Translations under genes and position numbers: made by a program
Notes under the pieces: generated by a model
Seen by the model: only the letters and a program-made list of their open reading frames with translations
What the model was told of the DNA's origin: nothing
Databases searched by the model: none
Part shown: in pieces, positions 5,191 through 51,083 of the stretch
How positions within the stretch are numbered: the first letter of the stretch is position 1
Layout: every line of letters begins with the position of its first letter
Source of the DNA: Stenomitos rutilans HA7619-LM2
GTDB taxonomy: Bacteria; Cyanobacteriota; Cyanobacteriia; Leptolyngbyales; Leptolyngbyaceae
DNA: 64,000 nt
NCBI GenBank assembly: GCA_019358945.1
Contig: JAHHIE010000027.1
Span: 2,994 to 66,993, forward strand
Direction: 5' to 3'

Positions 5191-5674
5191 ATAAGGACAC
5201 GCTAAATAGACATCTTTAATATAGGCGTGCAACAGGCGGTAGAGCAATTTTTCCCCGCCTGTCCCTACCTGTACTGGCACGAGAGGTTGTTCCCCTCAAT
5301 TGGTTAAGGTGGAGAGGCGCAAGCCTCCCGTAAGGCCATAAAATTGCGCGTTAACGCCGCTCTAACGGTTAGGCAGCGCCGAGAAATTCAAAGCCGCTAC
5401 AATCAAGACCACACCCCAAGGCTCAGCTAGACCGAGAGATTCATCCCAGTTGCCAAACGATTCGCAACTGGGTGCATCGTGAGCGCGCGCGTGATCGGAT
5501 CAGTGCGCCTCAGCCCCCATCGGGTAGTCAGTGCTACCTCTAAGCCAGCCGTCGTGCATTACCACCAGCGGCCTCCCGACCAGAACCCGCTGTGGATGGC
5601 TTCTGCACTCAAGCCCCAGTCTTCTCAAGCCAACCGAGACATGGTGCTCCGGCTGCTCCAATACGCAAAGTTGA

Positions 5675-11418: not shown

Positions 11419-11634
11419 TGCTAAAGTCTAGCGCTTCTCTAATAGCGAGAGAAGTCTAGCATCCGCAGGGACGATCGATCTTGCGCTCCAATCATGCAGG
11501 GGCGATCGTGCATGCAAAAGGTTTAGGCTAAAACTATTTGCAAGGTTACGGATAGGGCAATGGTGCGGATCGGCGATCGTCGGCTCCAGCAGTGTATCCT
11601 GGGATGAGCAACCCGCTTAGAATGAGAACGATCT

Positions 11635-12915
11635 GTGCTTGACCTGAAGCTAATCCGCGAAAAGCCCGACTTGGTGCGCGAGAAACTCAACGCTCGCAAT
11701 GGTATCTATGACCTTCAGCCGCTGTTGCAGTTAGACGAACAACGCCGATCGCTGGAGCAGGAGCGATCGCAGCTTCAGGCGCGGGGCAACGAAATCGGCA
11801 AACAGGTCGGGCAACAGATGAAAGCGGGCGTAAAGCCGGATGATCCAGCCCTACAGTTGCTCAAGGACGAAGGCAACCAGGTTAAAGCCAAATTGAGCGA
11901 TCTGGAACCCCAGGAAAAAGACCTGAAAGCGCAGATCGAAGCACTGTTGCTGACATTTCCAAATTTGCCTGGTGACACCACGCCGATCGGCAAAAACGAA
12001 ACCGAAAATGTGGAAGTGCGTCGCTGGGGCGATGAATATAAACCGCAGCAGGAAGGTATCTTGCCTCATTGGGAAATTGCCGAAAAACTTGGCATTCTTA
12101 ACACCGAACGGGCAACGAAACTGGCTCAAACCCGGTTTGTCGCGCTACTGGGTGCAGGTGCAGCCCTAGAGCGATCGCTGATTAGCTTTATGCTCGATCG
12201 CCAAACCGCCGCAGGCTACCTCGAAGTGCTGCCACCGCTTCTGGTCAATACTCAATCGCTGACGGCCACCGGGCAGTTACCCAAGTTTGCCGAAGAAAGC
12301 TTTCAGTGTAAAGATGATGACCTCTGGCTAATTCCTACAGCCGAAGTGCCCGTTACCAACCTTTACCGGGACGAAATTCTCACAGCCGATGATCTTCCCA
12401 TTCATCACTGTGCCTATACTCCGTGCTTTCGTCGTGAGGCTGGCAGCTATGGGCGCGATACGCGTGGACTTATTCGGCTACACCAATTCAACAAAGTGGA
12501 ATTGGTCAAACTTGTGCGCCCCGAAACCTCTGAGCAAGAGCATCAAACCCTGGTACAAAACGCAGAGGCTATTCTGCAAGCCCTAAAGTTGCCGTATCGC
12601 GTGGTTGAACTTTGCACAGGCGATTTAGGCTTTGGTGCGGCCAAATGCTACGACCTGGAAGTGTGGCTTCCTGCTGCCGGAACCTACCGCGAAATCTCAA
12701 GCTGCTCCAACTTTGGTGACTTCCAGGCGCGACGCGGCAACATTCGCTTTAAAGAAGCAGGCAAAAAGGGCACAGAGTTTGTCCATACGCTAAACGGCTC
12801 TGGTTTAGCCGTCGGTCGCACAATGGCAGCCCTTTTAGAGAACTATCAGCAGCCAGATGGCACTGTTAGCATTCCAGAGGTTTTGCAGCCGTTTTTGGGG
12901 CGATCGGTGCTGTAG
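11635..12915 (+). CDS. serS: Serine--tRNA ligase
   Basis: N-terminal coiled coil; [22 protein letters not shown] and [11 protein letters not shown] motifs. Confidence 0.98.
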
Positions 12916-38173: not shown

Positions 38174-38995
38174 CTAACTTGCAAGCACTGAAGCAATCGG
38201 TGCATCAGGCGGCATTACCTTCTGAGTAGGCGCGATCGCGGTGGGACTCACATCTGCGGCAGACGGCTCACGGGGCAGAAAGCGTCCCCGCAACCCATAA
38301 CCAACGAGTCCCAAATACTCTCGGAACACTAGAAAAGCCTTCTTCTTCGTATCTAAGCGCTGCGGTAGCGGGTTGATATGCGGTACGACCTCAAACCCAA
38401 GGCTCCGAAAGGTCAGAAGCGATCGCAACATATGGGGTGGATCGGTCACCAACAGAATGCGATGAATCTTTTGGGGCTGCAAAATAGCTGCCGTGAAACG
38501 GGCGTTTTCTTCTGTCGTGCGAGAACACGGTTCACCAGCGATCGCCGTACTCGGAATCCCCTTTTGTTCCAACAGGTCGGCAATTTGCTGCGCGTCACCC
38601 CAACCACTCGCAAAGATTAGGGGTGCGCGATGAGCCTCCCATAGACGAGCAGACACATCCACACGTTCCGATCGCATCGCCGTCCCCCGCCCCAGCACCA
38701 CGATCGCGTCTGCGGTTGTGCCGGGATCGGACGGAAGAAAACTAACCAAAACACGATTCCCGATCTTGATCATGGCAGGCGAGAGGGTCAGCAAGTACAC
38801 GCATAACAGCGTCGCTCCTAGCGCACTGATGCGCCGCCGCCAGCGCAACCGTCGCAAGACCATCGGCAGCAACGTTAAAAGCACTAAGGGCGGGATGATC
38901 AATGCAGGCGTTGTCAGCCAGCTAAAAATCTGCCAGGACAACGAAGTCCAGGAAGTTGTAAGAGTTTTTTGTAGGCACAGGGATGGGTCTAGCAT
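38174..38995 (-). CDS. YdcF/DUF218 family membrane protein (paralog 2)
   Basis: ADAIVVLGRG, TTEENARFT and VTDPPHMLRS motifs. Confidence 0.88.
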   Translation of the reverse strand: MLDPSLCLQKTLTTSWTSLSWQIFSWLTTPALIIPPLVLLTLLPMVLRRLRWRRRISALGATLLCVYLLTLSPAMIKIGNRVLVSFLPSDPGTTADAIVVLGRGTAMRSERVDVSARLWEAHRAPLIFASGWGDAQQIADLLEQKGIPSTAIAGEPCSRTTEENARFTAAILQPQKIHRILLVTDPPHMLRSLLTFRSLGFEVVPHINPLPQRLDTKKKAFLVFREYLGLVGYGLRGRFLPREPSAADVSPTAIAPTQKVMPPDAPIASVLAS

Positions 38996-39481
38996 TGCGT
39001 TACCTGATCAATCTCATTCTGTATGCAACGATGGTCGTCGGCAGTGCACCCAATGCGATCGTTACTACCTTAACCTCTTCAGTATTAACAAATGTTTATG
39101 CAGGAAGTCGCCCCTTGATCACAGACATTGATCAACAGTGATCACAGACAGCGCTCTAGCTCATTAACCGCTACACTGATCACTATTAAAGCCACACTCA
39201 TCCAACGTTGATGTATCGCTGAGACAACAGATTTACAGCCGTTTTCGTTTGGCTTCACCACATCTGCGACCCGTTCTCCTGCACCCGTCCTTAATAAGAC
39301 CGTAGTTGAATGACACTGACAGAATAATCCGAACCGCTCCCAACTCCCAAATCTGGGGGAGCCGAACCATAAAGTCCTTTGGGCGCACAAGAAAAGGGGC
39401 CTAGTTTCTGCTTATTTCAGTGCCATTCGACTGTAGTTTCCTTGATTGAGAACTGCTGTAAGCTGCCCTTGAAGTGTTTTT

Positions 39482-39970
39482 ATGCAAACCAAACTTCCCA
39501 TCGTCTCCACCCCGCAACACAGCCGCGATAGTTTGGTCATCACCTTTGCGCCGCTGTCGCTCACAGAGGCATATGCGCTGGCAGAAGATGATGCCAATGG
39601 CGCGATCGTGGTGATGAGTGGCACCGTCAGACATCAGACGGATGGTAAGCCAGTGGTCGCGCTGGAGTATCAGGCGTATGAGCCAATGGCACTGCAAATC
39701 TTCCGTCAAATTGCCCATGAAATCCGGCAGCGCTGGTCGGATGCCAATCGCGTTGTCATTCACCATCGCACGGGTCGGCTTGAAATTGGCGAAATCAGCG
39801 TGCTAGTGGCTGTCGGTTGTCCCCATCGGGCAGAAGCATTCGAGGCATGCCAGTACGCGATCGACACCCTCAAACACAACGCCCCCATTTGGAAGAAAGA
39901 GCACTGGGCAGACGGCTCCAGCAGTTGGGTCAGTATTGGTGCTTGTGAACAGCCGGGAGCAGTTTGCTAA
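39482..39970 (+). CDS. moaE: Molybdopterin synthase catalytic subunit
   Basis: SGTVR, LEYQAYEPMA, HHRTGRLEIGE and LKHNAPIWKKE motifs. Confidence 0.96.
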   Translation: MQTKLPIVSTPQHSRDSLVITFAPLSLTEAYALAEDDANGAIVVMSGTVRHQTDGKPVVALEYQAYEPMALQIFRQIAHEIRQRWSDANRVVIHHRTGRLEIGEISVLVAVGCPHRAEAFEACQYAIDTLKHNAPIWKKEHWADGSSSWVSIGACEQPGAVC

Positions 39971-40036
39971 TGATTCACCTGCCTGATGCCAGTGCGTGTC
40001 TGGCCGTTCGCTCAATCCATCAGCATCAGTAGGAGC

Positions 40037-41524
40037 TTAGCGTTTCACTGCTGTGGGTAAGGTCAGCCTGAAGGCAGTGTGGTCAGCGATCGCCAGGTCA
40101 AGGGTTAGTGAACCACCGTGAGCGCGGACAATTTCGCGTGCCAGGCTCAGCCCCAGCCCAATGCCTTCGACTTTGCGGGTACGGGCAGGATCACCGCGAT
40201 GGAAGCGATCGAAGATACGATCGCGATCGCTCACGGGGATGGGTTTAGAGGCATTGCCAATGGTTATGGTCACGGTCTTGTCCGTTTGGTGTGCGTCAAG
40301 CGTAATCCAACCATCGGGAAGATTGTATTTAATCGCATTGCTGAACAGGTTTTGCAGGACTTGCATCAGGAGATCGCGATCGCCCTCCACCCACAACCCT
40401 TTGGGAATGACAGTTTGCACCTTCAGATGGGGAGCCAGCAGTTCTAGATCTTCCAGCATTTCCTCCAACAAAATGGAAATTTCCACCGAAACTGTGTGCA
40501 AACTCATGTGTCCTGCGTCGGCTAGGGACAGCAGCAAAAGTTTCCGCATAATGCTACTCAGGCGACGTACCTCATCTAGCAGGTTGCTCAAGCGTTGCTG
40601 CACTTCAGAACCAGACGGTACTTGTTGAAGCGATCGCTCCAGTTCACCTTGCAGAATTGTTAGCGGCGTTTTAAGTTCATGGGCTGCGTCGGCGCTAAAG
40701 CGAGAAGCCTGGGTAAAGCTGCGCTCTAGACGTTCTAGCATCTGGTTAAACACCTGAATCAGTTCGATAAATTCACTGTCTGTTGTCCCCGTAGGAATGC
40801 GTTGGTCGAGTCCTTTAACGGTTACTTGTTGAATCACATCGGTTAATTGATGAATTGGACGTAACGCGCTGCCAGCAACCAACCAGGCACCACCCGCGAC
40901 CAATAAAAGCACACCGGGAATGGAAATCAGGAAGATACTGCGAATGGTACCCATCTCCTGATTGATGGTTTGGAGGTTGACGGCGATCGCAACGCTTAGT
41001 TCAGGAAAGTTTGCGGCCCCAATGCGCCAGTCTCCGGTGGTTGTTCGTTCAGTGACAAACTGCGGGCGAGGGGGTGATAGACGCGACGCTGGACGTGATG
41101 GATTGTTTGGTGAGTCCGATCGAGGGGGCAATGGTGGTGGTTGCCCCCTTAGCGGCGCTGGTGGTGCAAGTTTCAACTGTCGAATAAGCAATGAGTTCAC
41201 ACTCTGGTCAGCAGGCAGAGCGTTTGTTTGATATAGCGTGTTACCGTTCCCATCCAGCACCAGTAGCGCGATCGGTGTTTTGGTATTGGCTCCAAACGCA
41301 TAGGCTAAGGTGCTGCCGTAGAAATCCCAGCGTTCTGGCTCTCGCAAACGTGGTGCACGCAGCAATTGATTCACCAGTTCAGCATCCAGACGGCTAATCT
41401 TCGCGGTATAAATTTGAAACCAGGAGACTGCCGCAAACCCAATAAGGGCAGTACCTGCCAACATCGCGGACAGCAGCGCCACTCGTAACCGAAACGATTG
41501 CCATTGGAAGGAATGCCATTTCAT
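40037..41524 (-). CDS. HAMP-domain sensor histidine kinase (CusS/CzcS-like)
   Basis: Two TMs, HAMP, FSADAAHELKTPL, NLFSNAIKYN, GLGLSL; Pro-rich periplasmic insert. Confidence 0.92.
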   Translation of the reverse strand: MKWHSFQWQSFRLRVALLSAMLAGTALIGFAAVSWFQIYTAKISRLDAELVNQLLRAPRLREPERWDFYGSTLAYAFGANTKTPIALLVLDGNGNTLYQTNALPADQSVNSLLIRQLKLAPPAPLRGQPPPLPPRSDSPNNPSRPASRLSPPRPQFVTERTTTGDWRIGAANFPELSVAIAVNLQTINQEMGTIRSIFLISIPGVLLLVAGGAWLVAGSALRPIHQLTDVIQQVTVKGLDQRIPTGTTDSEFIELIQVFNQMLERLERSFTQASRFSADAAHELKTPLTILQGELERSLQQVPSGSEVQQRLSNLLDEVRRLSSIMRKLLLLSLADAGHMSLHTVSVEISILLEEMLEDLELLAPHLKVQTVIPKGLWVEGDRDLLMQVLQNLFSNAIKYNLPDGWITLDAHQTDKTVTITIGNASKPIPVSDRDRIFDRFHRGDPARTRKVEGIGLGLSLAREIVRAHGGSLTLDLAIADHTAFRLTLPTAVKR

Positions 41525-42201
41525 ACTAGGTCAGGCTTGCGAAACCGATAGCCAACCCCACGAATGCTTTCAATCCAGCCAGTGTCGTCAATGGGATCAA
41601 TTTTCTTGCGAATCCGTTGGATGCAAACATCGACCACATTGGTATTGGGGTTGAAGTCGTATCCCCAAACGTGTTCCAAAATTTGGGTGCGCGTGAACAC
41701 CCGTCCCGGCGATCGCATCAGGTATTCCAGCAAATTAAATTCCCGGCTGGTGAGTTCAATGGCCCGTTGCTGGCAGGTCACTTCGCGGGTGATGCGATCG
41801 AGCTTAAGCGAACCAACTGTGAGCAAATTTTGGCGTTCACCGATGCTACGACGCACCACTGCATGGATGCGAGCGGCTAACTCTTCCACAAAGAACGGTT
41901 TGGCAATGTAATCATCAGCGCCCAGATTCAACCCTTGCAGGCGATCGTCCAGTTCATTGCGGGCAGTCAACAAAATCACGGGCGCATTCCGACCTTCGCG
42001 CCGAAGCTGTTTCAAAATCGCCAAGCCATCTTTGCCGGGCACCATGATATCCAGCACGATCGCGTCGTAGTCGTGATCTAACGCTCTCAGATACCCATCG
42101 TCACCATTGTCGCAATAGTCTACGACAAAGCCCTGCTCCTTCAACCCCGCACGGACAAAGTCAGCTATTTTTGCTTCATCTTCGACAAACAGGACGTTCA
42201 C
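41521..42201 (-). CDS. OmpR-family response regulator (CusR/CzcR-like)
   Basis: VEDE, LDIMVP, LTAR, GADDYIAKPF; winged-helix TNVVDVCIQRIRKK...RGVGY. Confidence 0.94.
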   Translation of the reverse strand: MNVLFVEDEAKIADFVRAGLKEQGFVVDYCDNGDDGYLRALDHDYDAIVLDIMVPGKDGLAILKQLRREGRNAPVILLTARNELDDRLQGLNLGADDYIAKPFFVEELAARIHAVVRRSIGERQNLLTVGSLKLDRITREVTCQQRAIELTSREFNLLEYLMRSPGRVFTRTQILEHVWGYDFNPNTNVVDVCIQRIRKKIDPIDDTGWIESIRGVGYRFRKPDLV

Positions 42202-42254
42202 AAGTCACTTACTGCTTACCAACTGCTCCATTGTAGGGTCACCCTTCCTCAACT

Positions 42255-42276
42255 TAAATGACAAAACTGTAATTCA
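42255..42276 (+). promoter_or_regulatory. CusR/CopR-like box TAAATGACAAAACTGTAATTCA (copy 1)
   Basis: Identical 22-mer at 44060-44081; resembles the TGACA-N4-TGT[C/A]AT cop box; an extra inverted half-site TGTCATTTT follows at ~42291. Confidence 0.7.
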
Positions 42277-42449
42277 CACGCAGTGTTAGCTGTCATTTTG
42301 GGCAGGCTAGATGGAATTAACTACGGACTACACAACCATTTGGGCAGTGCCTTTGTAGTAGGTCATTGGTGACTGGTGAACCGACTGTTCTTCTATTATC
42401 CTGACCGCAGCACCGCTTCAGCTCTACTATCAACATCTAAAGGATTACT

Positions 42450-43082
42450 ATGAACGTGCGTCGAATCTTAATCGCAACAGCTATTCCCGTACTCATGGGT
42501 TCGTTTGGGTTAGCCGCTTCCAACCAAGTCAATGCCGCTAATTTAAAGACTCAAGTTGCTCAAGCATCGCAACCATCCAATCAACCGCCCGAAGGTCAAC
42601 GCAGACCGCCCCGTATCGACTTTGCCGCTGCTGCTGCCAAGCTCGGCGTGACGGAACAGCAGTTAAAAGATGCTTTGGGTGTGCCATCGCAGCCACCGAG
42701 CGATCGCAGTCAGCGTCCTCCTCGTCCTGATTTTGCTGCCGCTGCCGCGAAACTAGGCACAACCGAAGCCAAACTCAAGCAAGCGTTAGGAGTGCCTGCT
42801 AAGTCGCCTGGTCAACAGGGCCGCACGGGCGATCGCAGCCAACGTCCCCCTGGCCCTGATTTTGCTGCCGCTGCGGCCAAGCTCGGCGTTACAGAGCAAC
42901 AGCTAAAGGACGCTCTAGGTGTACCCGCTCAACCACCCAGCGATCCTAGTCAACGCCCCCCTCGCCCTGATTTTGCTGCCGCTGCGGCCAAGCTGGGTGT
43001 AACGGAACAACAGCTAAAGGATGCTCTGGGTGTACCTGCTCAACCACCCAGCGAGAACGGCGCACCACCTCCTAACTCCTAA
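42450..43082 (+). CDS. Secreted protein with four ~37-aa repeats (RPxxxDFAAAAAKLGxTExxLKxALGVP)
   Basis: Sec-type signal peptide; four near-identical repeats separated by Pro/Gln/Ser linkers. Confidence 0.88.
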   Translation: MNVRRILIATAIPVLMGSFGLAASNQVNAANLKTQVAQASQPSNQPPEGQRRPPRIDFAAAAAKLGVTEQQLKDALGVPSQPPSDRSQRPPRPDFAAAAAKLGTTEAKLKQALGVPAKSPGQQGRTGDRSQRPPGPDFAAAAAKLGVTEQQLKDALGVPAQPPSDPSQRPPRPDFAAAAAKLGVTEQQLKDALGVPAQPPSENGAPPPNS

Positions 43083-43191
43083 TCAGTAGGGAGCGCATTT
43101 CTCTGCCTTAAGGGTGAGATGTTGGCATAAATTAAACCTCCACATGCGCATAGATGTCTTAATTGAGTTCATATTGCAAGGATGTTTGGTG

Positions 43192-43533
43192 ATGAATCAT
43201 AAAATCGCAGTCACGCTACTTGCTTTGCCGATCGGTGCCTTATCGATCGGTGCATCTACCCTTCTATCTCAGTCCGCTACTGCCGCAGAAATTACACCTC
43301 TGGCAGTGCGTCAGACTCCTGTGATCGTTGCCCAGCGCTACGATGATAATCGTAGCGATCGCGACCGAGACAACGATCAACGTGACGCCATTCGACGCGA
43401 AGAAGCTCGACGGGAAGCCCTTCGCCGTGATGCAAATCGCCGCGAACGAAGAGTCTGGATACCCGGTCATTGGGAATCTGGTTTCCTGGGCATTGGTCGC
43501 AAATGGGTAGAAGGCCACTGGGAAACACGCTAA
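43192..43533 (+). CDS. Secreted Arg/Asp-rich protein with two W-x-x-G-H-W (YXWGXW-like) motifs
   Basis: Signal peptide; WIPGHWE...WVEGHWE at the C-terminus. Confidence 0.75.
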   Translation: MNHKIAVTLLALPIGALSIGASTLLSQSATAAEITPLAVRQTPVIVAQRYDDNRSDRDRDNDQRDAIRREEARREALRRDANRRERRVWIPGHWESGFLGIGRKWVEGHWETR

Positions 43534-43587
43534 CGCGACGTGGGTGTATCTGCCGTTGAGCATTAAGCGATTCATTTAAAGCAAGAT

Positions 43588-43617
43588 AACGGGCGATTGG
43601 CGATCGTCCGTTTTTTT
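43588..43617 (+). terminator. Rho-independent terminator
   Basis: AACGGGCGAT-loop-ATCGTCCGTT followed by a T tract. Confidence 0.7.
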
Positions 43618-43710
43618 AATGCAACGCTACTTGCAACAACGCTCTGCAATGAATTGCAGGTTAACAGAACAAAGCCTGTTGAAACGGACTGACGTGGGCT
43701 TCTCCTACTA

Positions 43711-43866
43711 GGCAGTGTTTTAAAACTTCAATCGTTTCATTGCTGATAGCTTCTGCCCCCTTTTCTTGTATGCCCAAAGGGCTTTAAGCCCCCAATGCTG
43801 AGGGACTTTGAAGCTGGTTTGTAAGCCCCCAAATTTGGGGGCTTCCGAGGGCTTTAAAGCACGCCC
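43711..43866. mobile_element. 156-bp MITE with IS5-like ends, flanked by TA
   Basis: Left end GGCAGTGTTTTAAAAC; right end GCTTTAAAGCACGCCC matches the IS relic end at 6061-6074; TA on both sides; internal AAGCCCCCAAATTTGGGGGCTT hairpin. Confidence 0.75.
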
Positions 43867-44059
43867 TAGCCCGTTCCCATCGCGTTGCCGAGGGCACTAC
43901 GTTTAGTTTTGAATAGAGCAATGCCATCGTCGAAAGGACTGAAAGATACCCTCTTGGAAATGCTGCAGGATTTGGATTTAACGCACTAATAGACCAACTA
44001 TACTCGCCTCCCCTGCCTCCCCCGCTTCCCCTTGCCTCCTCTACCCTCTGCCTTTCCCA

Positions 44060-44081
44060 TAAATGACAAAACTGTAATTCA
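44060..44081 (+). promoter_or_regulatory. CusR/CopR-like box (copy 2) upstream of the exporter operon
   Basis: Identical to 42255-42276; 92 bp upstream of the adaptor ATG. Confidence 0.7.
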
Positions 44082-44173
44082 AGGTGATGGGAAACGGTCA
44101 TATTAGGCTGCCGTAATGGAACTATCGAACAGCATCACTATGATTCGTTGTTGTTTCCAACAAATGCAGCGTT

Positions 44174-45574
44174 ATGACACTTGATTCCCCCCAAGCTATT
44201 CCATTCAATCCGTTGCCCAACCGTATCATGAGACAGCGGTGGACTAAATGGTTGATGGGCCTACTGCTCCTCAGCTCCCTGTCAGGTGGTGGCTATTTGG
44301 TTTATCGCCAAACCATTGCTTCCACCAGTCAGGCAGCAAGGGGCAAACAAATCACGGTTCCTGTCTCGCGTGAAACGATTCCCATCACGATCGCCGCCAA
44401 TGGTACGGTAGAAGCCAAACAATCCACCAACGTCAGCCCCAAAAGTTCTGGACGGCTCAAAAGTTTGATCGTCGATGAAGGCGACGTAGTGCAAGCAGGG
44501 CGACCCCTGGCCTACATGGATGACTCAGACCTGCAAGGGCAACTGATTCAAGCACAGGGTTCGCTGGCATCGGCTCAAGCAAACTTGCAGAAGCTCGAAG
44601 CTGGCAACCGCCCTGAAGATATTGCTCAGGCAGAGTCTACCGTGAGAAGCGCTCAAGTTACATTGAGTCAGTCACAGGCAGATCTTCAACGGTATGAGCA
44701 ACTGTATCAGTCAGGAGCCATTTCTGCCCAATCGGTGAGCCAATACCGCACCACGCGAGACACCAATCAGGCAGCAGTAGACAAAGCGCAACAGGCACTC
44801 AAGCTATTGCAAGTTGGCAATCGCACAGAAGATATTGCCCAGGCACGCGCTCAGGTGACGCAAGCAGAAGGCAGTTTGAAAACCATCCAAACGCAGATTG
44901 AAGATGCCGTTATCCGTGCTCCCTTTAGCGGTATTGTGACGGCAAAATATGCTGACCCCGGTGATTTCGTCACCCCCACCACCTCTGGAAGTTCGGTTTC
45001 ATCTGCCACTTCGTCGTCTATTTTGTCGCTGGCCTCCACCTATCAAGTTTCCGCAGATGTAGCTGAAACCGATATTGGCAAGATTAAGCTGGGGCAAACT
45101 GTCACCATCACCGCCGATGCCTATCCCGATCAAACCTTTCAGGGCAAAGTGTCTCAGGTGGCGGCAGAGGCAACCGTCACCTCGAACGTCACGAGCTTTA
45201 AGGTGAAAGTGGCGCTTACCGATCCTAAAAAGCTGTTGCATCCCGGTATGAATGTGGATGCCAAATTTGATGCAGGTAAGTTGGATAACGTTCTGACCGT
45301 ACCGACCGTCGCGATCGCCCGTCAGCAAAACGGCACCGCTGTCCGCGTACTCACCCCAGACGGGAAAGCCAAATTTATACCCGTTACCACTGGAGCCACC
45401 ATCAACAACAAGACCGAAGTCCGCTCTGGTTTGCAAGGCAATGAAAAAGTCTTAGTCAGCGCACCAGCCGGAGCTTCGGGGACAGGCGCTTCTAATCGAA
45501 GCGGTAATGCCAGTGGAAGGAGCGGGGCAGGGGGAATGAGCGGTGCTGGGATGGGAGGACCGCCGCCGTTTTAG
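44174..45574 (+). CDS. Periplasmic adaptor / membrane fusion protein (MacA/HlyD type)
   Basis: TM anchor, lipoyl halves (VSPKSSGRL..LIVDEGD; IRAPFSGIV), long alpha hairpin, Gly-rich tail. Confidence 0.92.
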   Translation: MTLDSPQAIPFNPLPNRIMRQRWTKWLMGLLLLSSLSGGGYLVYRQTIASTSQAARGKQITVPVSRETIPITIAANGTVEAKQSTNVSPKSSGRLKSLIVDEGDVVQAGRPLAYMDDSDLQGQLIQAQGSLASAQANLQKLEAGNRPEDIAQAESTVRSAQVTLSQSQADLQRYEQLYQSGAISAQSVSQYRTTRDTNQAAVDKAQQALKLLQVGNRTEDIAQARAQVTQAEGSLKTIQTQIEDAVIRAPFSGIVTAKYADPGDFVTPTTSGSSVSSATSSSILSLASTYQVSADVAETDIGKIKLGQTVTITADAYPDQTFQGKVSQVAAEATVTSNVTSFKVKVALTDPKKLLHPGMNVDAKFDAGKLDNVLTVPTVAIARQQNGTAVRVLTPDGKAKFIPVTTGATINNKTEVRSGLQGNEKVLVSAPAGASGTGASNRSGNASGRSGAGGMSGAGMGGPPPF

Positions 45575-45632
45575 ATGAAGACAGAGGCGGGGAGGCAGAG
45601 GAAGCGGGGGAGGCAGAAGGCAGAAGGTTAAG

Positions 45633-45975
45633 TTGACGCTCTAAGCTGCATCTTTCGACCCCTAGACTTGCCACTCCGAGTTCAAAGCTCCACTCTCCGG
45701 GTTCAAAGCTCCATCTTTCGACCTTTAAGCTCTACCTTCCAAGTTCAAAGCTCCATAGTCCAAGTTCAAAGCTCCACTCTCCGAGTTCAAAGCTCCACTC
45801 TCCGAGTTCAAAGCTCGACGTTTTGACTCTTAAACTTAATCATCCGAGTTCAAAGCTTGATCTTTCAAGCTCAAAGCCTCATCTTTCGAGTTCAGAGCTA
45901 AATCTTTTAAGTTCAGATCTCAACTTTTAACCTTAAAGGTTCAACATTTTAACCTTAAAGCTCCATCTTCCAACC
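45633..45975 (+). repeat. Degenerate 21-bp tandem array C (~16 units), same family as A and B
   Basis: Repeated TCAAAGCTCCACTCTCCGAGT units, including two exact adjacent copies at ~45766-45807. Confidence 0.9.
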
Positions 45976-46023
45976 TCACTCCTCATTCCTCATCCCTCAT
46001 CCCTTCTCCACCGAGGTTTCGGC

Positions 46024-47328
46024 ATGAAAACACACGATCGCAAACCACCCCTCAAACAAGCATCCATTCTGATGCAGCGGAGTACATCAATCTCGTTCGG
46101 CGAAATTCTGACGATGGCGATCGAGGCACTCTGGAGCAACAAACTTCGCACGGTGCTCACCATGCTGGGCATTGTTATTGGCATTACGGCGGTCATTGCG
46201 GTGACGGCGATCGGTCAGGGTACGCAGAAATCGACGGAGCAACGCTTGCAATCCCTTGGTACTGACATTTTGCAAGTGCAATCGGGTGCAGCCAGAAGTG
46301 GATCGGTGCAGCAGGGTGCGGGAAGTGCCACCACCCTAACGTTGGAAGATGCTCAGGCGATCGGGCAGCAGGTGATTGGCGTTGATCGTGTCTCGGCGTT
46401 CTTGCAGCAAAACGCGCAGGTGGTTTACGACCAAAACAACAACTCCATGACCATCATCGGCACGGATGTAAATTATCCCGATGTGCGAAATACACACCCA
46501 CAAACGGGCCGATTTTTCACGCAAGAAGAAGTGGATGCTGCCTCGCCTGTAGCAGTTCTGGGGCCTACTGCTCGTGATGAGTTGTTGGGGACAGGCAGCA
46601 CGGCTGAAGGTGCCCAAATCCGCATTCAAGGGCAAACCTATGATGTCATCGGCGTGATGGAAACGAAAGGTTCACAAGGCCCCCAAAGCCCAGATGAACA
46701 AATTTATCTGCCACTCACCAATATGTCTGCTCGCCTGGTGGGAAACAATGCGGTGAAAGGCATTGCCATTCGGGGCGTTTACGTCAAAGTCAAAAGTCAG
46801 GATCAGCTCGATGCAGCACAGTATCAAATTACAAATCTTCTGCGGGTACGGCACGGCATTTTTCCAGAGAAAGGCAATAAAGATGATTTTCGGATTATCA
46901 ATTCAGCCGATGTGATTGAAACGTTGACCAGCACCTCGAAGCTGCTTACGGTGATGGTTGTGGCGATCGCGGGTATATCCCTCATCGTTGGCGGCATTGG
47001 CATCGCGAATATCATGCTGGTGTCTGTGGTGGAACGCACGCGAGAGATTGGAGTTCGTAAAGCGATCGGTGCCACCAGCATCGCCGTTCTGAGCCAGTTC
47101 CTAGCCGAAGCGGTCGTGATTGCCGCATTGGGTGGCGTGATTGGCATTGGTCTGGGTGTGGCGATCGCCTTTGCTGCTGCCAATCTCTTCAGCTTCCCAT
47201 TCGTCTTATCAATCTGGGCAATCCTCCTTGGTTTTGGCTTAACCTTCGCGATCGGGCTGGTGGCAGGCGTGATTCCTGCACGGAATGCGGCGCAGTTAGA
47301 CCCGATTACGGCGTTGAGGAGCGATTGA
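46024..47328 (+). CDS. MacB/FtsX-type ABC exporter permease
   Basis: LRTVLTMLGIVIG, large periplasmic domain, VSVVERTREIGVRKAIGA, AAQLDPITALR. Confidence 0.93.
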   Translation: MKTHDRKPPLKQASILMQRSTSISFGEILTMAIEALWSNKLRTVLTMLGIVIGITAVIAVTAIGQGTQKSTEQRLQSLGTDILQVQSGAARSGSVQQGAGSATTLTLEDAQAIGQQVIGVDRVSAFLQQNAQVVYDQNNNSMTIIGTDVNYPDVRNTHPQTGRFFTQEEVDAASPVAVLGPTARDELLGTGSTAEGAQIRIQGQTYDVIGVMETKGSQGPQSPDEQIYLPLTNMSARLVGNNAVKGIAIRGVYVKVKSQDQLDAAQYQITNLLRVRHGIFPEKGNKDDFRIINSADVIETLTSTSKLLTVMVVAIAGISLIVGGIGIANIMLVSVVERTREIGVRKAIGATSIAVLSQFLAEAVVIAALGGVIGIGLGVAIAFAAANLFSFPFVLSIWAILLGFGLTFAIGLVAGVIPARNAAQLDPITALRSD

Positions 47329-47459
47329 GCTAGGGAGTAGGGAGTAGGGAAGCAGAGGGGGCAGGGGAAGCAGGGGAGGCGGTTGAGGAAGTGGGCTAGA
47401 GGTTTCGATATAGCGAGAGGTTTGTCGCTAGGGTTGATTGAAATTTGCATCATCGACCC

Positions 47460-47840
47460 ATGCCGAAACTGAAAAGGTTTGTAATTCCCCTGCTGCTTGC
47501 GTCTCCCTTAGTTTTGCTTCTCACTCACTGTAGTGTTGGCAACCCACTACCAATCCTAATTGGGAAAAAGATTTGGCTCAATAGAGACGACAGTCTTTTG
47601 AGAAATGAGGTGAGCCGCATGATTCCAATCGGTAGTTCCATCATGAATGCGAAATGGCTCTTGGAATTTAATGGATTTCAATGTGACTACAAGAAGGCTT
47701 CTGATCCGACAGATGGTTATCTTTCCTGTGAGCAAACACAATCTTACCTGGTATGCGCCATAACCTATAAAACTGCTGTTATGTCCGTCAAAAATGCAGT
47801 TTCACGTATTGAGTCATCAACTGGAAACTACTGTCTCTAG
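47460..47840 (+). CDS. Small Cys-containing putative lipoprotein
   Basis: MPKLKRFVIPLLLASPLVLLLTHC lipobox-like; four further Cys; lower GC than neighbours. Confidence 0.6.
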   Translation: MPKLKRFVIPLLLASPLVLLLTHCSVGNPLPILIGKKIWLNRDDSLLRNEVSRMIPIGSSIMNAKWLLEFNGFQCDYKKASDPTDGYLSCEQTQSYLVCAITYKTAVMSVKNAVSRIESSTGNYCL

Positions 47841-48005
47841 CTTCCCTACAGCACAAAACCTTTTGTCCGCATAGGTTACGCTCACCTTTTCTGATGTGTC
47901 AGAACAGCTTTACCCATCCTACAACTGCTTCCCCTGCCTTCTCCGCTCCCCCTGCTTCCCCTGCTCTCCTCATGTGCAAACTACTCATTAAAAGGATTAC
48001 TCAAC

Positions 48006-48695
48006 ATGGCAACCATGATTTGGATGGAAGACATTCGGAAAACCTATCGACTGGGTGAAGTAAATGTGCCTGTACTCAAGGGCATTGACCTATCCATTGA
48101 AGAAGGCGAATACGTCGCCATTATGGGCATGTCGGGTTCGGGAAAATCGACGCTGATGAACATTCTTGGCTGTCTCGATCGCCCCTCTGCTGGACATTAC
48201 CTTCTCGAAAACAGAGATTTAACCACGCTCACCAATGATGAACTGGCGTACATCCGCAATCGCCGGATTGGGTTTGTGTTTCAGCAATTCAACCTGCTGC
48301 CTCGTGCCACTGCGCTCGAAAATGTGATGCTGCCAATGGTGTACGCTGGTGTGCCCAAAGCCCAGCGGCGACGACGAGCGGCGGAAGCATTGGCGCACGT
48401 TGGTTTAGTCGATCGCATGAATAACCGCCCCAATCAACTTTCGGGAGGACAACAGCAGCGAGTCGCGATCGCTCGTGCCCTGGTCAACCGTCCTGCGCTG
48501 GTGCTGGCAGATGAACCCACAGGGGCTTTGGATACACAGACTTCTCAAGAAGTGATGGATTTAATGACGGAATTGAATCAACAGGGCATCACGATCGTCA
48601 TTGTGACGCACGAACTGGATGTGGCGAACCAAACCCATCGCACAATCTACGTCAAAGATGGTTTAGTCACCCGTCCCGCAGCCCTGGCACATTAA
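48006..48695 (+). CDS. MacB/LolD-type ABC ATPase
   Basis: [24 protein letters not shown] and DEPTGALD motifs. Confidence 0.95.
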
Positions 48696-48743
48696 CTACT
48701 GACCACTAACTAATCAATCCACTTCCATCACGTTCCCAAAGTT

Positions 48744-49148
48744 CTATAAATTCGTCGAAATCGCTTGCACGGGACAGGTAGGAATGCACTGCTCACACAC
48801 AATGCAGCGCGATCGCGTGAAGGTGAGCTTAAACGATTCTGAGTCAAGCTTCAGGGCCTCAGTCGGGCACACACCTGTGCAAAGCCCACAATGCACACAG
48901 GTTTCTTCATCAATCATGATCTCGCGGTTAGAAAACGAAACGCCAATGTCTTGCGATCGCATCCAGTCAAGGGCTGCATCCAGTTCGTCAATATCCCCAG
49001 ATAGCTCAACGACGAGCTTGCCCACCTGATTGGGCGCAACCTGAGCGCGAATGATATTCGCCGCCACATTAAAATCCTTTGCCAATCGATAGGTGACTGG
49101 CATTTGAACCGATCGCTTTGGAAAGGTGAGCGTAACTCGCTTTTTCAC
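48744..49148 (-). CDS. NIL domain + 2x[4Fe-4S] ferredoxin
   Basis: FNVAANIIRA (NIL); CVHCGLCTGVCP and CIVCEQCIPTCP. Confidence 0.9.
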   Translation of the reverse strand: MKKRVTLTFPKRSVQMPVTYRLAKDFNVAANIIRAQVAPNQVGKLVVELSGDIDELDAALDWMRSQDIGVSFSNREIMIDEETCVHCGLCTGVCPTEALKLDSESFKLTFTRSRCIVCEQCIPTCPVQAISTNL

Positions 49149-49205
49149 AGTCTCAAACGTAAAGTGACTCTATCTTATCGATTTCTACAGAAAAGCTGGG
49201 GATTA

Positions 49206-49305
49206 TACCGATTTAAAGAATGACGGCTACAGATCAATCGGTGGGTAGGGGCAAGGCATTGCCTTGCCCCTACAAGATGTGTCGCATTTTCAATTCAAAT
49301 TGGTA
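49206..49305 (+). mobile_element. 100-bp MITE, second copy, target duplication TTA
   Basis: TTA at 49203-49205 and 49306-49308; nearly identical to 5778-5877. Confidence 0.9.
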
Positions 49306-49398
49306 TTAGAGCGTTGATTTTTCAGTTGTGCCACTGAACCAGAGAGGTTTGAATTCCTCCCTCTGCTTCCTCCGCTCCCCCTGCCTCCCCAGCCCTTC

Positions 49399-50949
49399 CT
49401 ATTCAAAAACCTGCGGCGTAAAGCTGCCATGCAACCCATAAGGCACATGATGCTTGAGATGTAAACGGGCGATCGGCCCCCGATGCAAATCGCGTGCGTC
49501 TAGAATCACGACATCCGATCGCTCATGTGCCGAGTCATAAACCAGCGTGAGCAACCAGCCATCATCCTCTGCTCCAACCAGATCTGCTGACGGCAATCCA
49601 TCCTTAAACGCAGCAGAGGCGCGCGGCACAAAGATGGGTTCGCTGACGTAACCGTGTGGTGCTGCACTCCAAAGCTGTCGTTTGTCTGTTTCCACATCAA
49701 TCTTGGCGATCGCCTGTAGTGGTGCATTTCCTTCAGGTGCATGAGCTGCCCCCATGAAGACGTAATGGTGCGATCGACCCGCTTTCGCCGGATGCACGTA
49801 GGGAAACTCACAACAGCGGCTTTCCACCAATTCACGCTGCACTGCTTGAGTGGTCAGGTTCACGTGAAACCGCCAGAGTTGCCCTGGAGTTAAGGCTGCA
49901 AAATCTGTTTGTCTAAAATCAGCGTCAGCCTCCACAGCGGGTAACGAACCGTAGCAGACCGAATCGATTACGATTTCATCTCCTTGCTCAAACGCATTGG
50001 CATGGTGAAACACAAAGCCAGCGTGAGTCTCAAAGATTCGAGCCTTGAGTGCGTCGCGTTGAGCCGCTGATGCTGTGTGTCGTGGAATCACCACAATCCG
50101 CGTTGGTTTTTCAGGATTGAAGGTGATGCATTCGCCAGCACCGCGTTTGCCTAACAGAAACGGTAGTGGGTTAAAGCTGACGGGATTTTGAAAGAAGATG
50201 GCGTAATTGGGCGTAATGGCAAAATCGTGAATGAAGGCAAAGCCCGGTGTGGCATGGGAATGCTTTCGCAGCAATTTGCCATCAGGATGGAACTCAAACA
50301 GCGTAATGGTGGAAGATAATCCTGGCTTGATGGAAAAATTGACCAGACAAGGTGCACCGTCATCCTGATTGCAGGCAGGATCAATCCAGGGATGAGCTGC
50401 AAAGGCAGCACCAGGCTGCAACACGCCATTCAGGTGATCGAGTCCCAACGTCTCTAGTGTGGCAGGGTCAAGCCGATGCGGTTCAGCCGCTTCCCACAGT
50501 GCCAGCAGCTTTCCACCCCAGTAAAGAATGTTGGTGTTCGCAATGTTTTTGAGGCGAAAATCAAAGGCATTTGCCAGCCATCCACCCGGCTTTTGCGTCC
50601 CAAACACGCCACGATAGAGGATGCGTCCTGCGGCTTGTTCTGCAACATACCCCTCGGTGCGAACGAAGCGATTGCGAAAGTGGGCACGCCCGTTGTCGAA
50701 GGCGATCGCGCAAATCATCCCATCTCCATCAAAGGGATGATGAATCGTCTGCCCATTCACATCTAGCATCCCTGGCCCATTACGGAACAGGGTACCGTGC
50801 AGTTCAGGCGGAATTTTGCCTTCAACGTCATCGATCCAGTAGTCAAACTCTTGCTTGAGAGAACGGTAGCCCTTCTGCCATCCTTCGCGATTGTAGGAAA
50901 GCGTCGGCGGCACGGTCGATGCGCGTTCGTTGAGCTGGAAGCTTTGCAT
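49399..50949 (-). CDS. Carotenoid oxygenase (RPE65/ACO family)
   Basis: LFRNGPG, HPFDGDG, NIANT, FAAHP, FIHDF, EFP, EPIFVP and YGLHGSF motifs. Confidence 0.93.
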   Translation of the reverse strand: MQSFQLNERASTVPPTLSYNREGWQKGYRSLKQEFDYWIDDVEGKIPPELHGTLFRNGPGMLDVNGQTIHHPFDGDGMICAIAFDNGRAHFRNRFVRTEGYVAEQAAGRILYRGVFGTQKPGGWLANAFDFRLKNIANTNILYWGGKLLALWEAAEPHRLDPATLETLGLDHLNGVLQPGAAFAAHPWIDPACNQDDGAPCLVNFSIKPGLSSTITLFEFHPDGKLLRKHSHATPGFAFIHDFAITPNYAIFFQNPVSFNPLPFLLGKRGAGECITFNPEKPTRIVVIPRHTASAAQRDALKARIFETHAGFVFHHANAFEQGDEIVIDSVCYGSLPAVEADADFRQTDFAALTPGQLWRFHVNLTTQAVQRELVESRCCEFPYVHPAKAGRSHHYVFMGAAHAPEGNAPLQAIAKIDVETDKRQLWSAAPHGYVSEPIFVPRASAAFKDGLPSADLVGAEDDGWLLTLVYDSAHERSDVVILDARDLHRGPIARLHLKHHVPYGLHGSFTPQVFE

Positions 50950-51083
50950 AGAAACCAGGAAAGTTTTTAGATTTTGGTTTTTGGTTGTTGGCAAGCAGGA
51001 GCGAGGAGTCAGCTTTAACCTTATGCCCTTTGCTTTTAGCTTTTAGCCTTCATCCCTCATCCCTTATCCCTTATTCCTTCCCC

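Follow-up and report, generated by a model that had tools for sequence, protein, structure and literature searches.

Several described circuits couple a two-component system to an efflux pump and a small periplasmic protein. In CusRS-cusCFBA of Escherichia coli and CopRS of Pseudomonas, a regulator of the OmpR-type CopR/CusR branch acts at an operator of 5-bp inverted half-sites with a 4-bp spacer (consensus TGACA-N4-TGTCA; PMC12428095). This operator occupies the intergenic stretch from which the two-component operon and a target operon diverge, and the targets are a tripartite efflux pump of the resistance-nodulation-division (RND) type and a small periplasmic protein, CusF. The kinases CopS and CusS hold their metal at a site with two invariant His residues (plus Phe) at the dimer interface (PMC7763554). 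The enterobacterial envelope-stress systems BaeSR (with spy, mdtABCD and acrD), CpxAR-CpxP and ZraSR-ZraP likewise unite an autoregulated two-component system, a periplasmic helical accessory protein and an efflux pump, and BaeR binds upstream of both spy and mdtABCD-baeSR (PMC7657598). MacAB-TolC, PvdRT-OpmQ, the Aat dispersin exporter and the cyanobacterial glycolipid exporter DevBCA-HgdD are built from an adaptor, a MacB-core/FtsX permease and an ATP-binding cassette (ABC) ATPase; such pumps load their substrates in the periplasm, among them small basic proteins and peptides exported by Sec (PMC5985334). Substrates of MacB-type pumps include the Sec-exported enterotoxin STII, the positively charged 10-kDa dispersin and pyoverdine (PMC5985334). 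In Firmicutes, the BceRS two-component system, which senses peptide antibiotics, co-evolves with and regulates BceAB, an ABC transporter of the MacB fold (PMC5985334). Here we analyzed a window of 64 kb (the whole stretch of DNA under study) on contig JAHHIE010000027.1 of the cyanobacterium Stenomitos rutilans HA7619-LM2, in which a regulator-kinase pair of the CopR/CusR branch, genes for two secreted proteins (REP, a repeat protein, and P139) and a MacAB-type ABC exporter are linked by two copies of a 22-bp box. We report the box, its conservation, its fixed promoter geometry and its gene linkage. We consider it probable, at roughly 0.7, that the box is the operator through which the adjacent regulator activates an envelope/periplasm regulon that is conserved across cyanobacteria and is not of the metal type.

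Coordinates are positions in the window, and L-numbers denote the homologous loci compared. The box, TAAATGACAAAACTGTAATTCA, occurs in two exact copies on the forward strand, at 42255-42276 (Box 1) and 44060-44081 (Box 2). No third copy was found in the 64 kb with up to three mismatches allowed, and none of 100 dinucleotide-preserving shuffles contained a match, in agreement with the first-pass annotation, which had noted exactly two occurrences and a resemblance to CusR and CopR boxes. Box 1 (core TGACA-AAAC-TGTAA, 42259-42272) falls within the 248 bp that separate the divergent regulator and REP genes, a position from which the predicted operator serves both the regulator operon leftwards and the REP operon rightwards. 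Box 2 (core 44064-44077) precedes the exporter operon, with 96 nt between the end of its core and the start codon (ATG) of the gene for the membrane-fusion protein. The resemblance to known operators holds: the window box agrees with the published TGACA-N4-TGTCA consensus at 9 of 10 positions (PMC12428095), although the consensus half-sites of the cyanobacterial family, TTACA-AAAC-TGTAA, carry TTACA where the window copy and CusRS/CopRS carry TGACA. The texts of PMC7763554 and PMC4182526 state no CopR binding motif. Aligning 49 sites gave a full site of about 22 bp, AAA-T[T/G]ACA-AAA[C/T]-TGTAA-TTnA, in which the positions left free by the core search pattern T[GT]ACA-N4-TGT[AC]A (the spacer AAA[C/T] and the flanks AAA and TTnA) are strongly conserved. 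The two window copies are identical over 22 nt because the functional site itself is about 22 bp, and no recent duplication is required. From this alignment we predict the box to be a conserved operator of the CusR/CopR-type inverted-repeat class.

Conservation was assessed in 80 loci around regulator relatives, comprising orthologues in cyanobacteria (72-93% identity) and more distant relatives (59-71%) in Gallionella, Methylococcaceae, Polaromonas, Hydrogenedentota, Acidobacteriota, Pontiella and others. The exact core was present in 14 of 18 cyanobacterial loci holding a regulator orthologue. In 13 of these it preceded the regulator gene by about 40-115 nt, and in L009 it lay before the REP gene; L010 and L012 carried a one-mismatch variant. 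In many loci a further copy preceded a REP gene by about 65-80 nt, and four loci from other phyla (L020, L023, L024 and L025) had the core 47 nt upstream of the regulator gene. In comparison, 814 kb of sequence surrounding unrelated regulators contained two matches to the pattern, of which one stood right before another regulator gene. When metagenome contigs were searched with a 21-mer, eight matches came up, six in the expected context (beside the regulator, REP-P139, an LTXXQ-like gene or a dioxygenase-like gene) and two that were low-GC chance matches. In other genomes the box also preceded genes for a dioxygenase-like protein with a twin-arginine translocation (TAT) signal, cytochrome b561, YHYH proteins and a PqqD-like protein.

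The region is rich in repeats, and the two copies might in principle be a chance or mobile-element repeat, for example part of a miniature inverted-repeat transposable element (MITE), or the site of another regulator, with no functional link between the genes. The identity of the two copies stops at 22 nt and their flanks are unrelated, on which ground a recent duplication or a MITE was rejected as their origin. The box also lies at matching distances from the same genes in more than 25 loci of different orders and phyla, and it travels with the regulator gene, standing immediately upstream of it even in Hydrogenedentota and Acidobacteriota. We regard a fortuitous or transposon-borne origin as very improbable.

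By eye, a PqqD-like small protein was seen beside the two-component system in two cyanobacterial loci, L010 (6098-6361 and upstream) and L011 (4889-7547), and in L016 (7653-9034), a Gallionella metagenome-assembled genome. Downstream of it come an ATP-grasp-like gene in L011 and L016 and a pyridoxal-phosphate-decarboxylase-like gene in L010 and L011, and a box or near-box precedes it in L010 and L011 (gene assignments likewise by eye).

No exporter was found within 10 kb in the loci of regulator relatives, and the comparison was therefore made from the pump side, by reading nine pump loci with their flanks (L081-L089). In all eight orthologous loci (L081-L087 and L089) a box stands before the exporter operon or before a REP gene that heads it. 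The two-component system is adjacent in four of these eight, as it is in the window, and the box precedes the exporter in L081, L083 and L084 although no two-component system is near. L081 (Myxacorys) thus has an exact consensus box 67 nt before the adaptor gene and no two-component system in 16 kb, L083 (Nostoc) has a box followed by a two-repeat REP lipoprotein, adaptor and permease, and L084 a box, REP, cytochrome b561 and adaptor-permease-ATPase. Linked arrangements are kinase-regulator, box, dioxygenase-like gene, box and REP-adaptor-permease in L082 (Scytonema); kinase-regulator, box, REP, dioxygenase-like gene, box and adaptor-permease in L085, where the box lies 95 nt from the adaptor gene (96 nt in the window); and kinase-regulator, box and REP-adaptor-permease-ATPase in L087 (Coleofasciculaceae). 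L086 (Calothrix parasitica) reads kinase-regulator-YHYH-YHYH, two boxes, adaptor-permease-ATPase and then a box before a REP-like gene, and L089 (Rivularia PCC 7116) is organized in the same way. The regulon proposed at first pass, made of two-component system, repeat protein and exporter, is thereby corroborated by like boxes before the orthologous genes of many cyanobacteria, and the synteny survey it called for found the arrangement again in L082, L085, L086 and L087.

The ninth pump, L088 (Anabaena), was set aside as a paralogue under other control: its adaptor is 52% identical, and the locus has no box and a different palindrome, TGAC-N4-GTCA. There, AGTGAC-TTTT-GTCACT (about 5290-5312) lies upstream of a gene that stands before the adaptor gene and encodes a small, secreted repeat protein rich in Arg, which suggests a like operon layout under another regulator. 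In L086 (3030-5479) and L089 (36-2306), tandem YHYH-domain proteins with CGGH and YHYH motifs are encoded divergently from the pump operon with two boxes between, and one of these proteins ends in ...RPDRPPQGKRPPRPGKG, the Pro/Arg motif of REP. The same two genomes encode, between the pump ATPase gene and the REP-like gene, a 91-aa secreted and extremely Lys/Arg-rich protein with two Cys (L086 9998-10273 and L089 6732-7007, both on the reverse strand), whose gene shares a box-containing divergent region with the REP-like gene.

The boxes stand at fixed distances from predicted promoter elements. For the regulator-kinase operon, a predicted -10 hexamer TACAAT (42230-42235, reverse strand) lies 23 nt from the core of Box 1, and a TAnAAT-type hexamer occupies the same position in most aligned cyanobacterial regulator promoters. 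On the other side of Box 1, the predicted -10 of the REP operon, CATTTT (42294-42299, forward strand), lies 21 nt from the core and is preceded by TGT as in an extended -10. The predicted -10 of the exporter operon, CATATT (44099-44104, forward strand), is also 21 nt from its core, with GGT replacing TGT at this Box 2 promoter. The string cTGTcATTTTg recurs at the 21-nt spacing in 13 of 17 aligned REP, dioxygenase and exporter promoters, and the exporter promoters of L085, L081 and L083 show the same spacing as the window. No sigma-70 pair of -35 and -10 elements was found at the predicted promoters, and no -35 element. Among public sequencing runs, a single one, a DNA metagenome, was found to contain this DNA.

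Judged from the predicted -10 hexamers, the box centre falls near -42.5 relative to the start on the regulator side and near -40.5 on the REP and exporter sides; the corresponding predicted starts are at about 42223 (reverse strand), 42306 and 44111 (both forward strand). OmpR/PhoB-type activators replace the -35 element from this position. With a box centred near -41 and no -35 element, the geometry suggests activation by the regulator, together with positive autoregulation. The kinase would phosphorylate the regulator, which would bind the palindrome AAT[G/T]ACA-N4-TGTAATT as a dimer centred about 41 bp upstream of the start, in place of a -35 element. From there it would activate its own regulator-kinase operon, the REP-P139 unit and the MacAB-type tripartite ABC exporter. 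The REP leader (42306-42449) is about 100 nt longer than in orthologues, the distance from box core to REP ATG being 177 nt in the window against 66-81 nt in orthologues, and an Rfam scan of 39900-48900, long leader included, returned no RNA family.

The regulator (41521-42201, reverse strand) is an OmpR/PhoB-type protein of the CopR/CusR branch with Response_reg and Trans_reg_C domains (Pfam), and the sensor histidine kinase (40037-41524, reverse strand) has HAMP, HisKA and HATPase_c domains (Pfam) and two transmembrane helices. Their genes overlap by 4 nt and therefore form an operon. Response_reg, Trans_reg_C, HisKA and HATPase_c all scored above their cut-offs, and the motifs of phospho-relay were read in both proteins: VEDE, VLDIMVPG and IAKPF in the regulator (receiver acidic pocket, Asp and Lys), and the H-box AAHELKTPL with NAIKYN and GIGLGLS (N and G boxes) in the kinase. 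Both look intact.

An earlier description of the pair as CusS/CusR-like stands for the broad family and the transmitter domains; it does not extend to the subfamily or the sensor. The best NCBIfam match of the regulator, TIGR01387, scored 245.5 bits against a cut-off of 279.2, with HprR at 207 (cut-off 353) and CusR at 204 (cut-off 420), and the kinase scored 240.7 bits against 292.55 for TIGR01386, a match that covers only residues 177-490 (second transmembrane helix, HAMP and transmitter) and leaves the sensor outside. The periplasmic domain of the kinase comprises 153 residues, about 44 to 196, and is PAS-like with a Pro-rich loop; it contains no His, no Cys, one Met and 19 Pro, and none of its alignment columns is a conserved His or Cys among 22 orthologues. 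An AlphaFold2 model of kinase residues 1-232 (predicted local distance difference test (pLDDT) 86, predicted template modelling score (pTM) 0.74) shows a PAS-like sensor flanked by two long helices, in which the Pro-rich segment, residues ~120-155, forms a loop. The best solved fold match of the sensor is that of WalK in a WalK-YycH model (E 3.7e-4), and the CusS sensor was not among the top 50 fold matches. Profilin/poly-proline complexes also appeared among the fold matches; at E ~0.1 and template modelling (TM) scores of ~0.2-0.3 they were too weak and were not used. The kinase would sense through its PAS-like periplasmic domain, the Pro-rich loop being a probable site of variable insertions.

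These data bear on whether the locus is a heavy-metal (Cu/Ag/Zn) resistance regulon of the CopRS/CusRS/CzcRS kind, in which the kinase would sense periplasmic metal and the pump export metal or a chelate. The best NCBIfam matches of regulator and kinase are indeed heavy-metal subfamilies, the box is of the CusR/CopR type, the closest solved kinase is HprS, and some accessory proteins elsewhere are Metal_resist/LTXXQ (L011) or YHYH proteins with His/Cys motifs (L086 and L089). Yet both scores fall below the curated cut-offs, the kinase match omits the sensor domain, and the sensor has no His or Cys, nor is a His or Cys column conserved in its 22 orthologues, whereas CopS and CusS sense metal through two invariant His (PMC7763554); mature REP, for its part, is free of His, Cys and Met. 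The predicted targets in the window and about 30 related loci were REP, LTXXQ, EF-hand, dioxygenase-like, cytochrome b561 and YHYH proteins and the MacAB-type pump; CopA, CusCBA, multicopper oxidase and CopM were not seen among them (flanking genes of L001-L029 were read as open reading frame translations without a Pfam scan), and no P-type ATPase or other metal gene followed a box in the loci with listed flanking genes. Compared with CusRS/CopRS, then, the window shares the regulator branch, the operator architecture, its divergent placement and the pairing of a tripartite pump with a small periplasmic protein (REP in place of CusF), and differs in its sub-threshold scores, a sensor without the invariant His ligands, an ABC/MacB-type rather than RND pump, a periplasmic protein without metal ligands and a regulon without Cu genes. 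A metal-resistance function seems unlikely to us, and the circuit is probably not a copper sensor. The same evidence upholds the first-pass view of the targets as a MacAB-type exporter and secreted proteins rather than a classical copper system.

REP (42450-43082, forward strand) is secreted: it carries a Sec signal (cleavage ..VNA|AN) and contains RPPRPDFAAAAAKLGVTEQQLKDALGVP in four repeats. In its mature form it has a mass of 18.6 kDa and an isoelectric point (pI) of 9.9, and it lacks Trp and Tyr as well as the residues named above. Its family counts about 230 cyanobacterial proteins, nearly all annotated as hypothetical. By motif count the repeat unit occurs zero to four times per protein among 120 listed homologues; the REP proteins of L005 and L037 have six units, and the orthologues that were read had between one and six. 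Units are predominantly preceded by the motif RPPRPD. AlphaFold2 models each repeat as a two-helix hairpin of 8-residue helix pairs with pLDDT >90. Searches against the PDB returned neither a sequence match nor, with Foldseek at E<=0.001, a fold match, and REP gave no LTXXQ Pfam match at E<=0.01, on which grounds homology with CpxP, Spy or ZraP was rejected and a positional analogy retained. Weak Pfam matches to Xre-like and other helix-turn-helix domains were also dismissed, since no stretch passes alone; they reflect a short helix-turn-helix-like repeat and not DNA binding. The repeats are alike in DNA as well, with a 117-bp unit at 90% identity in L082 (9403-9791) and a 183-nt pair at 75% identity within the window repeats (42618-43040), which suggests concerted evolution and copy-number change.

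P139 (43192-43533, forward strand; likely start 43192) is a small secreted basic protein (mature form 82 aa, pI 10.5) with a charged stretch of Arg, Asp and Glu, a WxxGHW C-terminus and a weak WXXGXW match; its 47 homologues are all annotated as hypothetical. It is probably co-transcribed with REP, and the REP-P139 order recurs in L097. An intrinsic-terminator-like hairpin of 11 pairs (43588-43612, forward strand, with a T-run to 43620) ends the REP-P139 unit. The defence-system libraries gave no relevant match.

The REP gene usually lies directly upstream of the pump or divergent from the regulator. The cpxP and zraP genes are divergent from their two-component operons in the same manner. In several lineages, other proteins occupy the REP position: a true LTXXQ/Metal_resist protein under box control in L011 (Pfam scan, above cut-offs), LTXXQ look-alikes identified by eye in L012, L091 and L096, EF-hand proteins in L026 and L028 (Pontiella, Hydrogenedentota) and Cys-containing modules in L016 (9220-9648) and L017 (9310-9789). 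The sensor loops of some kinases hold whole modules (a Cys-containing one, an EF-hand pair) that other lineages encode separately as secreted proteins. The L017 module is 43-47% identical to an insert in the L024 kinase loop (residues ~127-183; E 1e-13), and the L026 EF-hand protein is 45-52% identical to the L026 and L027 kinases (E 1e-10 to 4e-13). This homology between loop inserts and accessory proteins provides evidence, of the fusion type, for joint action of the accessory proteins and the sensor domain. In the periplasm the kinase would most likely be partnered by the co-regulated secreted protein, either as a co-sensor or as a modulator providing feedback. REP would have this part in the window, and a protein of the LTXXQ, EF-hand or Cys-module type would have it in other lineages.

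A bolder extension is that these two-component systems form a phylum-spanning class with exchangeable, detachable co-sensor modules, in which REP docks on the kinase and sets its activity, the pump sets the periplasmic level of REP or of its ligand, and the feedback measures export or envelope state rather than metal. The loop may hold the module (EF-hand pair or Cys module) in some lineages, and a separate secreted protein flanked by (R)PPRP motifs may take its place in others; REP may then be a multivalent string of hairpins, in which the RPPRPDF before each hairpin echoes the PPRPQF that ends the kinase loop. We offer this extension as speculation and think it unlikely in its full form.

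Several points weigh against the envelope-regulon interpretation itself. The choice of activation over repression derives solely from the position of the site, as read from predicted promoters. REP shows no sequence or fold similarity to CpxP or Spy detectable with Pfam or with Foldseek against the PDB, and its likeness to the kinase loop is a short motif only (RPPRPDF versus PPRPQF, pairwise E ~0.01) and is suggestive at best. Some accessory proteins elsewhere also point to metals (Metal_resist; YHYH with CGGH and YHYH motifs), and a metal cue may yet be involved.

Considering an operator-controlled envelope regulon as the preferred interpretation, we hold the closest regulatory analogy to be BaeR, by comparison of circuits. 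The window shares with the Bae, Cpx and Zra systems its layout of a seemingly autoregulated two-component system, a helical accessory protein and an efflux pump, and the orthologous accessory protein of some cyanobacteria is a true LTXXQ/Metal_resist member (L011 scanned; L091 and L096 by eye). It differs from them in that REP, with neither an LTXXQ match nor the long, bent helical hairpin of the CpxP/Spy-like fold, is made of one to six short hairpins with RPPRPDF linkers, and in that the regulator belongs to the CopR/CusR branch, has a different predicted operator and is linked to a MacB-type pump.

The exporter operon begins with the membrane-fusion protein or periplasmic adaptor (44174-45574, forward strand), which matches HlyD_D23 and HlyD_3 (Pfam) and exceeds the TIGR01730 cut-off (186.8 against 94.9), as expected of an RND_mfp/HlyD adaptor; its orthologues are 60-91% identical and widespread in cyanobacteria. 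The permease (46024-47328, forward strand) is of the MacB type without a fused ATPase: it carries both MacB_PCD and FtsX domains (PF12704, 160.6 bits; PF02687, 72.8 bits) and aligns with residues 248-646 of E. coli MacB. The ABC ATPase (48006-48695, forward strand; ABC_tran 125.5 bits) corresponds to MacB residues 1-223 and is LolD/DevA-like, a separate polypeptide as in DevA, whereas the ATPase of E. coli MacB is fused. All three DevBCA family scores are nonetheless below their cut-offs (DevB 85.9 against 129, DevC 22.2 against 290, DevA 201.6 against 295.8). In contrast to the MacAB-TolC group, the cluster has no outer-membrane factor gene, and none of the genes immediately next to it (38174-39970 and 48744-50994) encodes one. 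The system also differs from BceRS-BceAB, whose kinases have no sensor domain and sense via the transporter: the window kinase has a PAS-like domain of 153 aa in the periplasm, and the pump, in a diderm organism, comes with an adaptor. This pump would expel a substrate from the periplasm through the outer membrane.

Between the permease and ATPase genes lies P131 (47445-47840, forward strand), a small protein with an N-terminal signal or lipoprotein-like sequence, with 26 relatives among 1.84 billion representative proteins (13 at E<=1e-10). None of the other exporter loci that were read has it there, and in L081, L084, L086 and L087 the genes for permease and ATPase adjoin each other. A 21-bp tandem array (45674-45960) separates the adaptor and permease genes of the window. 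At a like intergenic position, L083 (Nostoc) has 7.4 copies of CATTCACAATGCAAGCCAATG (11578-11733, 95% matches), a unit unrelated to that of the window, and other orthologous exporter loci have 12-120 bp between the two genes and no array.

What the pump carries bears on the role of REP. It is possible that REP, P139 and the other small basic proteins are cargo of a protein-secretion system, delivered by Sec to the periplasm and then by the MacAB-type pump to the surface, which they would coat, with the two-component system only a switch; Aat handles dispersin, and MacAB-TolC the enterotoxin STII, in this manner. The REP gene immediately precedes the adaptor gene or shares an operon with it in L082, L083, L084 and L087, and is its neighbour in the window and L085; REP and P139 both have Sec signals and a basic pI, secreted Lys/Arg-rich proteins of 91 aa are encoded next to the pump in L086 and L089, and MacB pumps do accept Sec-exported substrates such as STII, dispersin and pyoverdine (PMC5985334). 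Many Nostoc loci, however, pair REP with the two-component system and have no pump within 10 kb, and L081 conversely has pump and box but lacks REP over its 16 kb. LTXXQ-type proteins occupy the place of REP in L011 (scanned) and in L012 and L096 (by eye), and enterobacterial LTXXQ proteins are periplasmic modulators and chaperones, not cargo. Mature REP also exceeds the likely upper bound of ~10 kDa for folded MacB cargo (PMC5985334), with the reservation that it is predicted to be a flexible string of hairpins. The cargo role is thus a live rival to the co-sensor role, albeit one we consider doubtful.

The composition of the cluster itself varies between relatives. In L099, a relative with 76-82% DNA identity, P139 lies directly beside the NIL-ferredoxin and RPE65 genes that flank the pump in the window, and the window segment 43534-48743, with Box 2 and the pump operon, has no counterpart in the corresponding L099 interval (5352-5565), a 5.2-kb indel. 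Upstream, homology between the two begins at 43102, just after the REP stop codon; P139 stands alone in L099, with no box before it. The window cluster was thus assembled from movable modules, each with its own operator.

What is new here is a CopR/CusR-branch regulon with a sensor not of the metal type, new families of secreted partners and a MacAB-type pump. To our knowledge, CopR-type two-component control of a MacAB/Dev-type pump has not been described, and no cyanobacterial counterpart of Cpx, Bae or Zra has been defined. Envelope-stress signalling in cyanobacteria is poorly known, and this circuit is a concrete and testable one: it supplies a 22-bp operator, three predicted promoters and a regulator-kinase pair widespread in filamentous cyanobacteria, along with two uncharacterized secreted families (REP, ~230 members; P139, ~47) and a MacB-type pump. 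A regulator and operator of the CopR/CusR type would here have been taken over for a sensor lacking metal ligands and for targets unconnected with metals, which advises caution in annotating such pairs as copper systems. The homology between some kinase loop inserts and the accessory proteins of other lineages opens a way to study the communication of periplasmic accessory proteins with PAS-like sensors.

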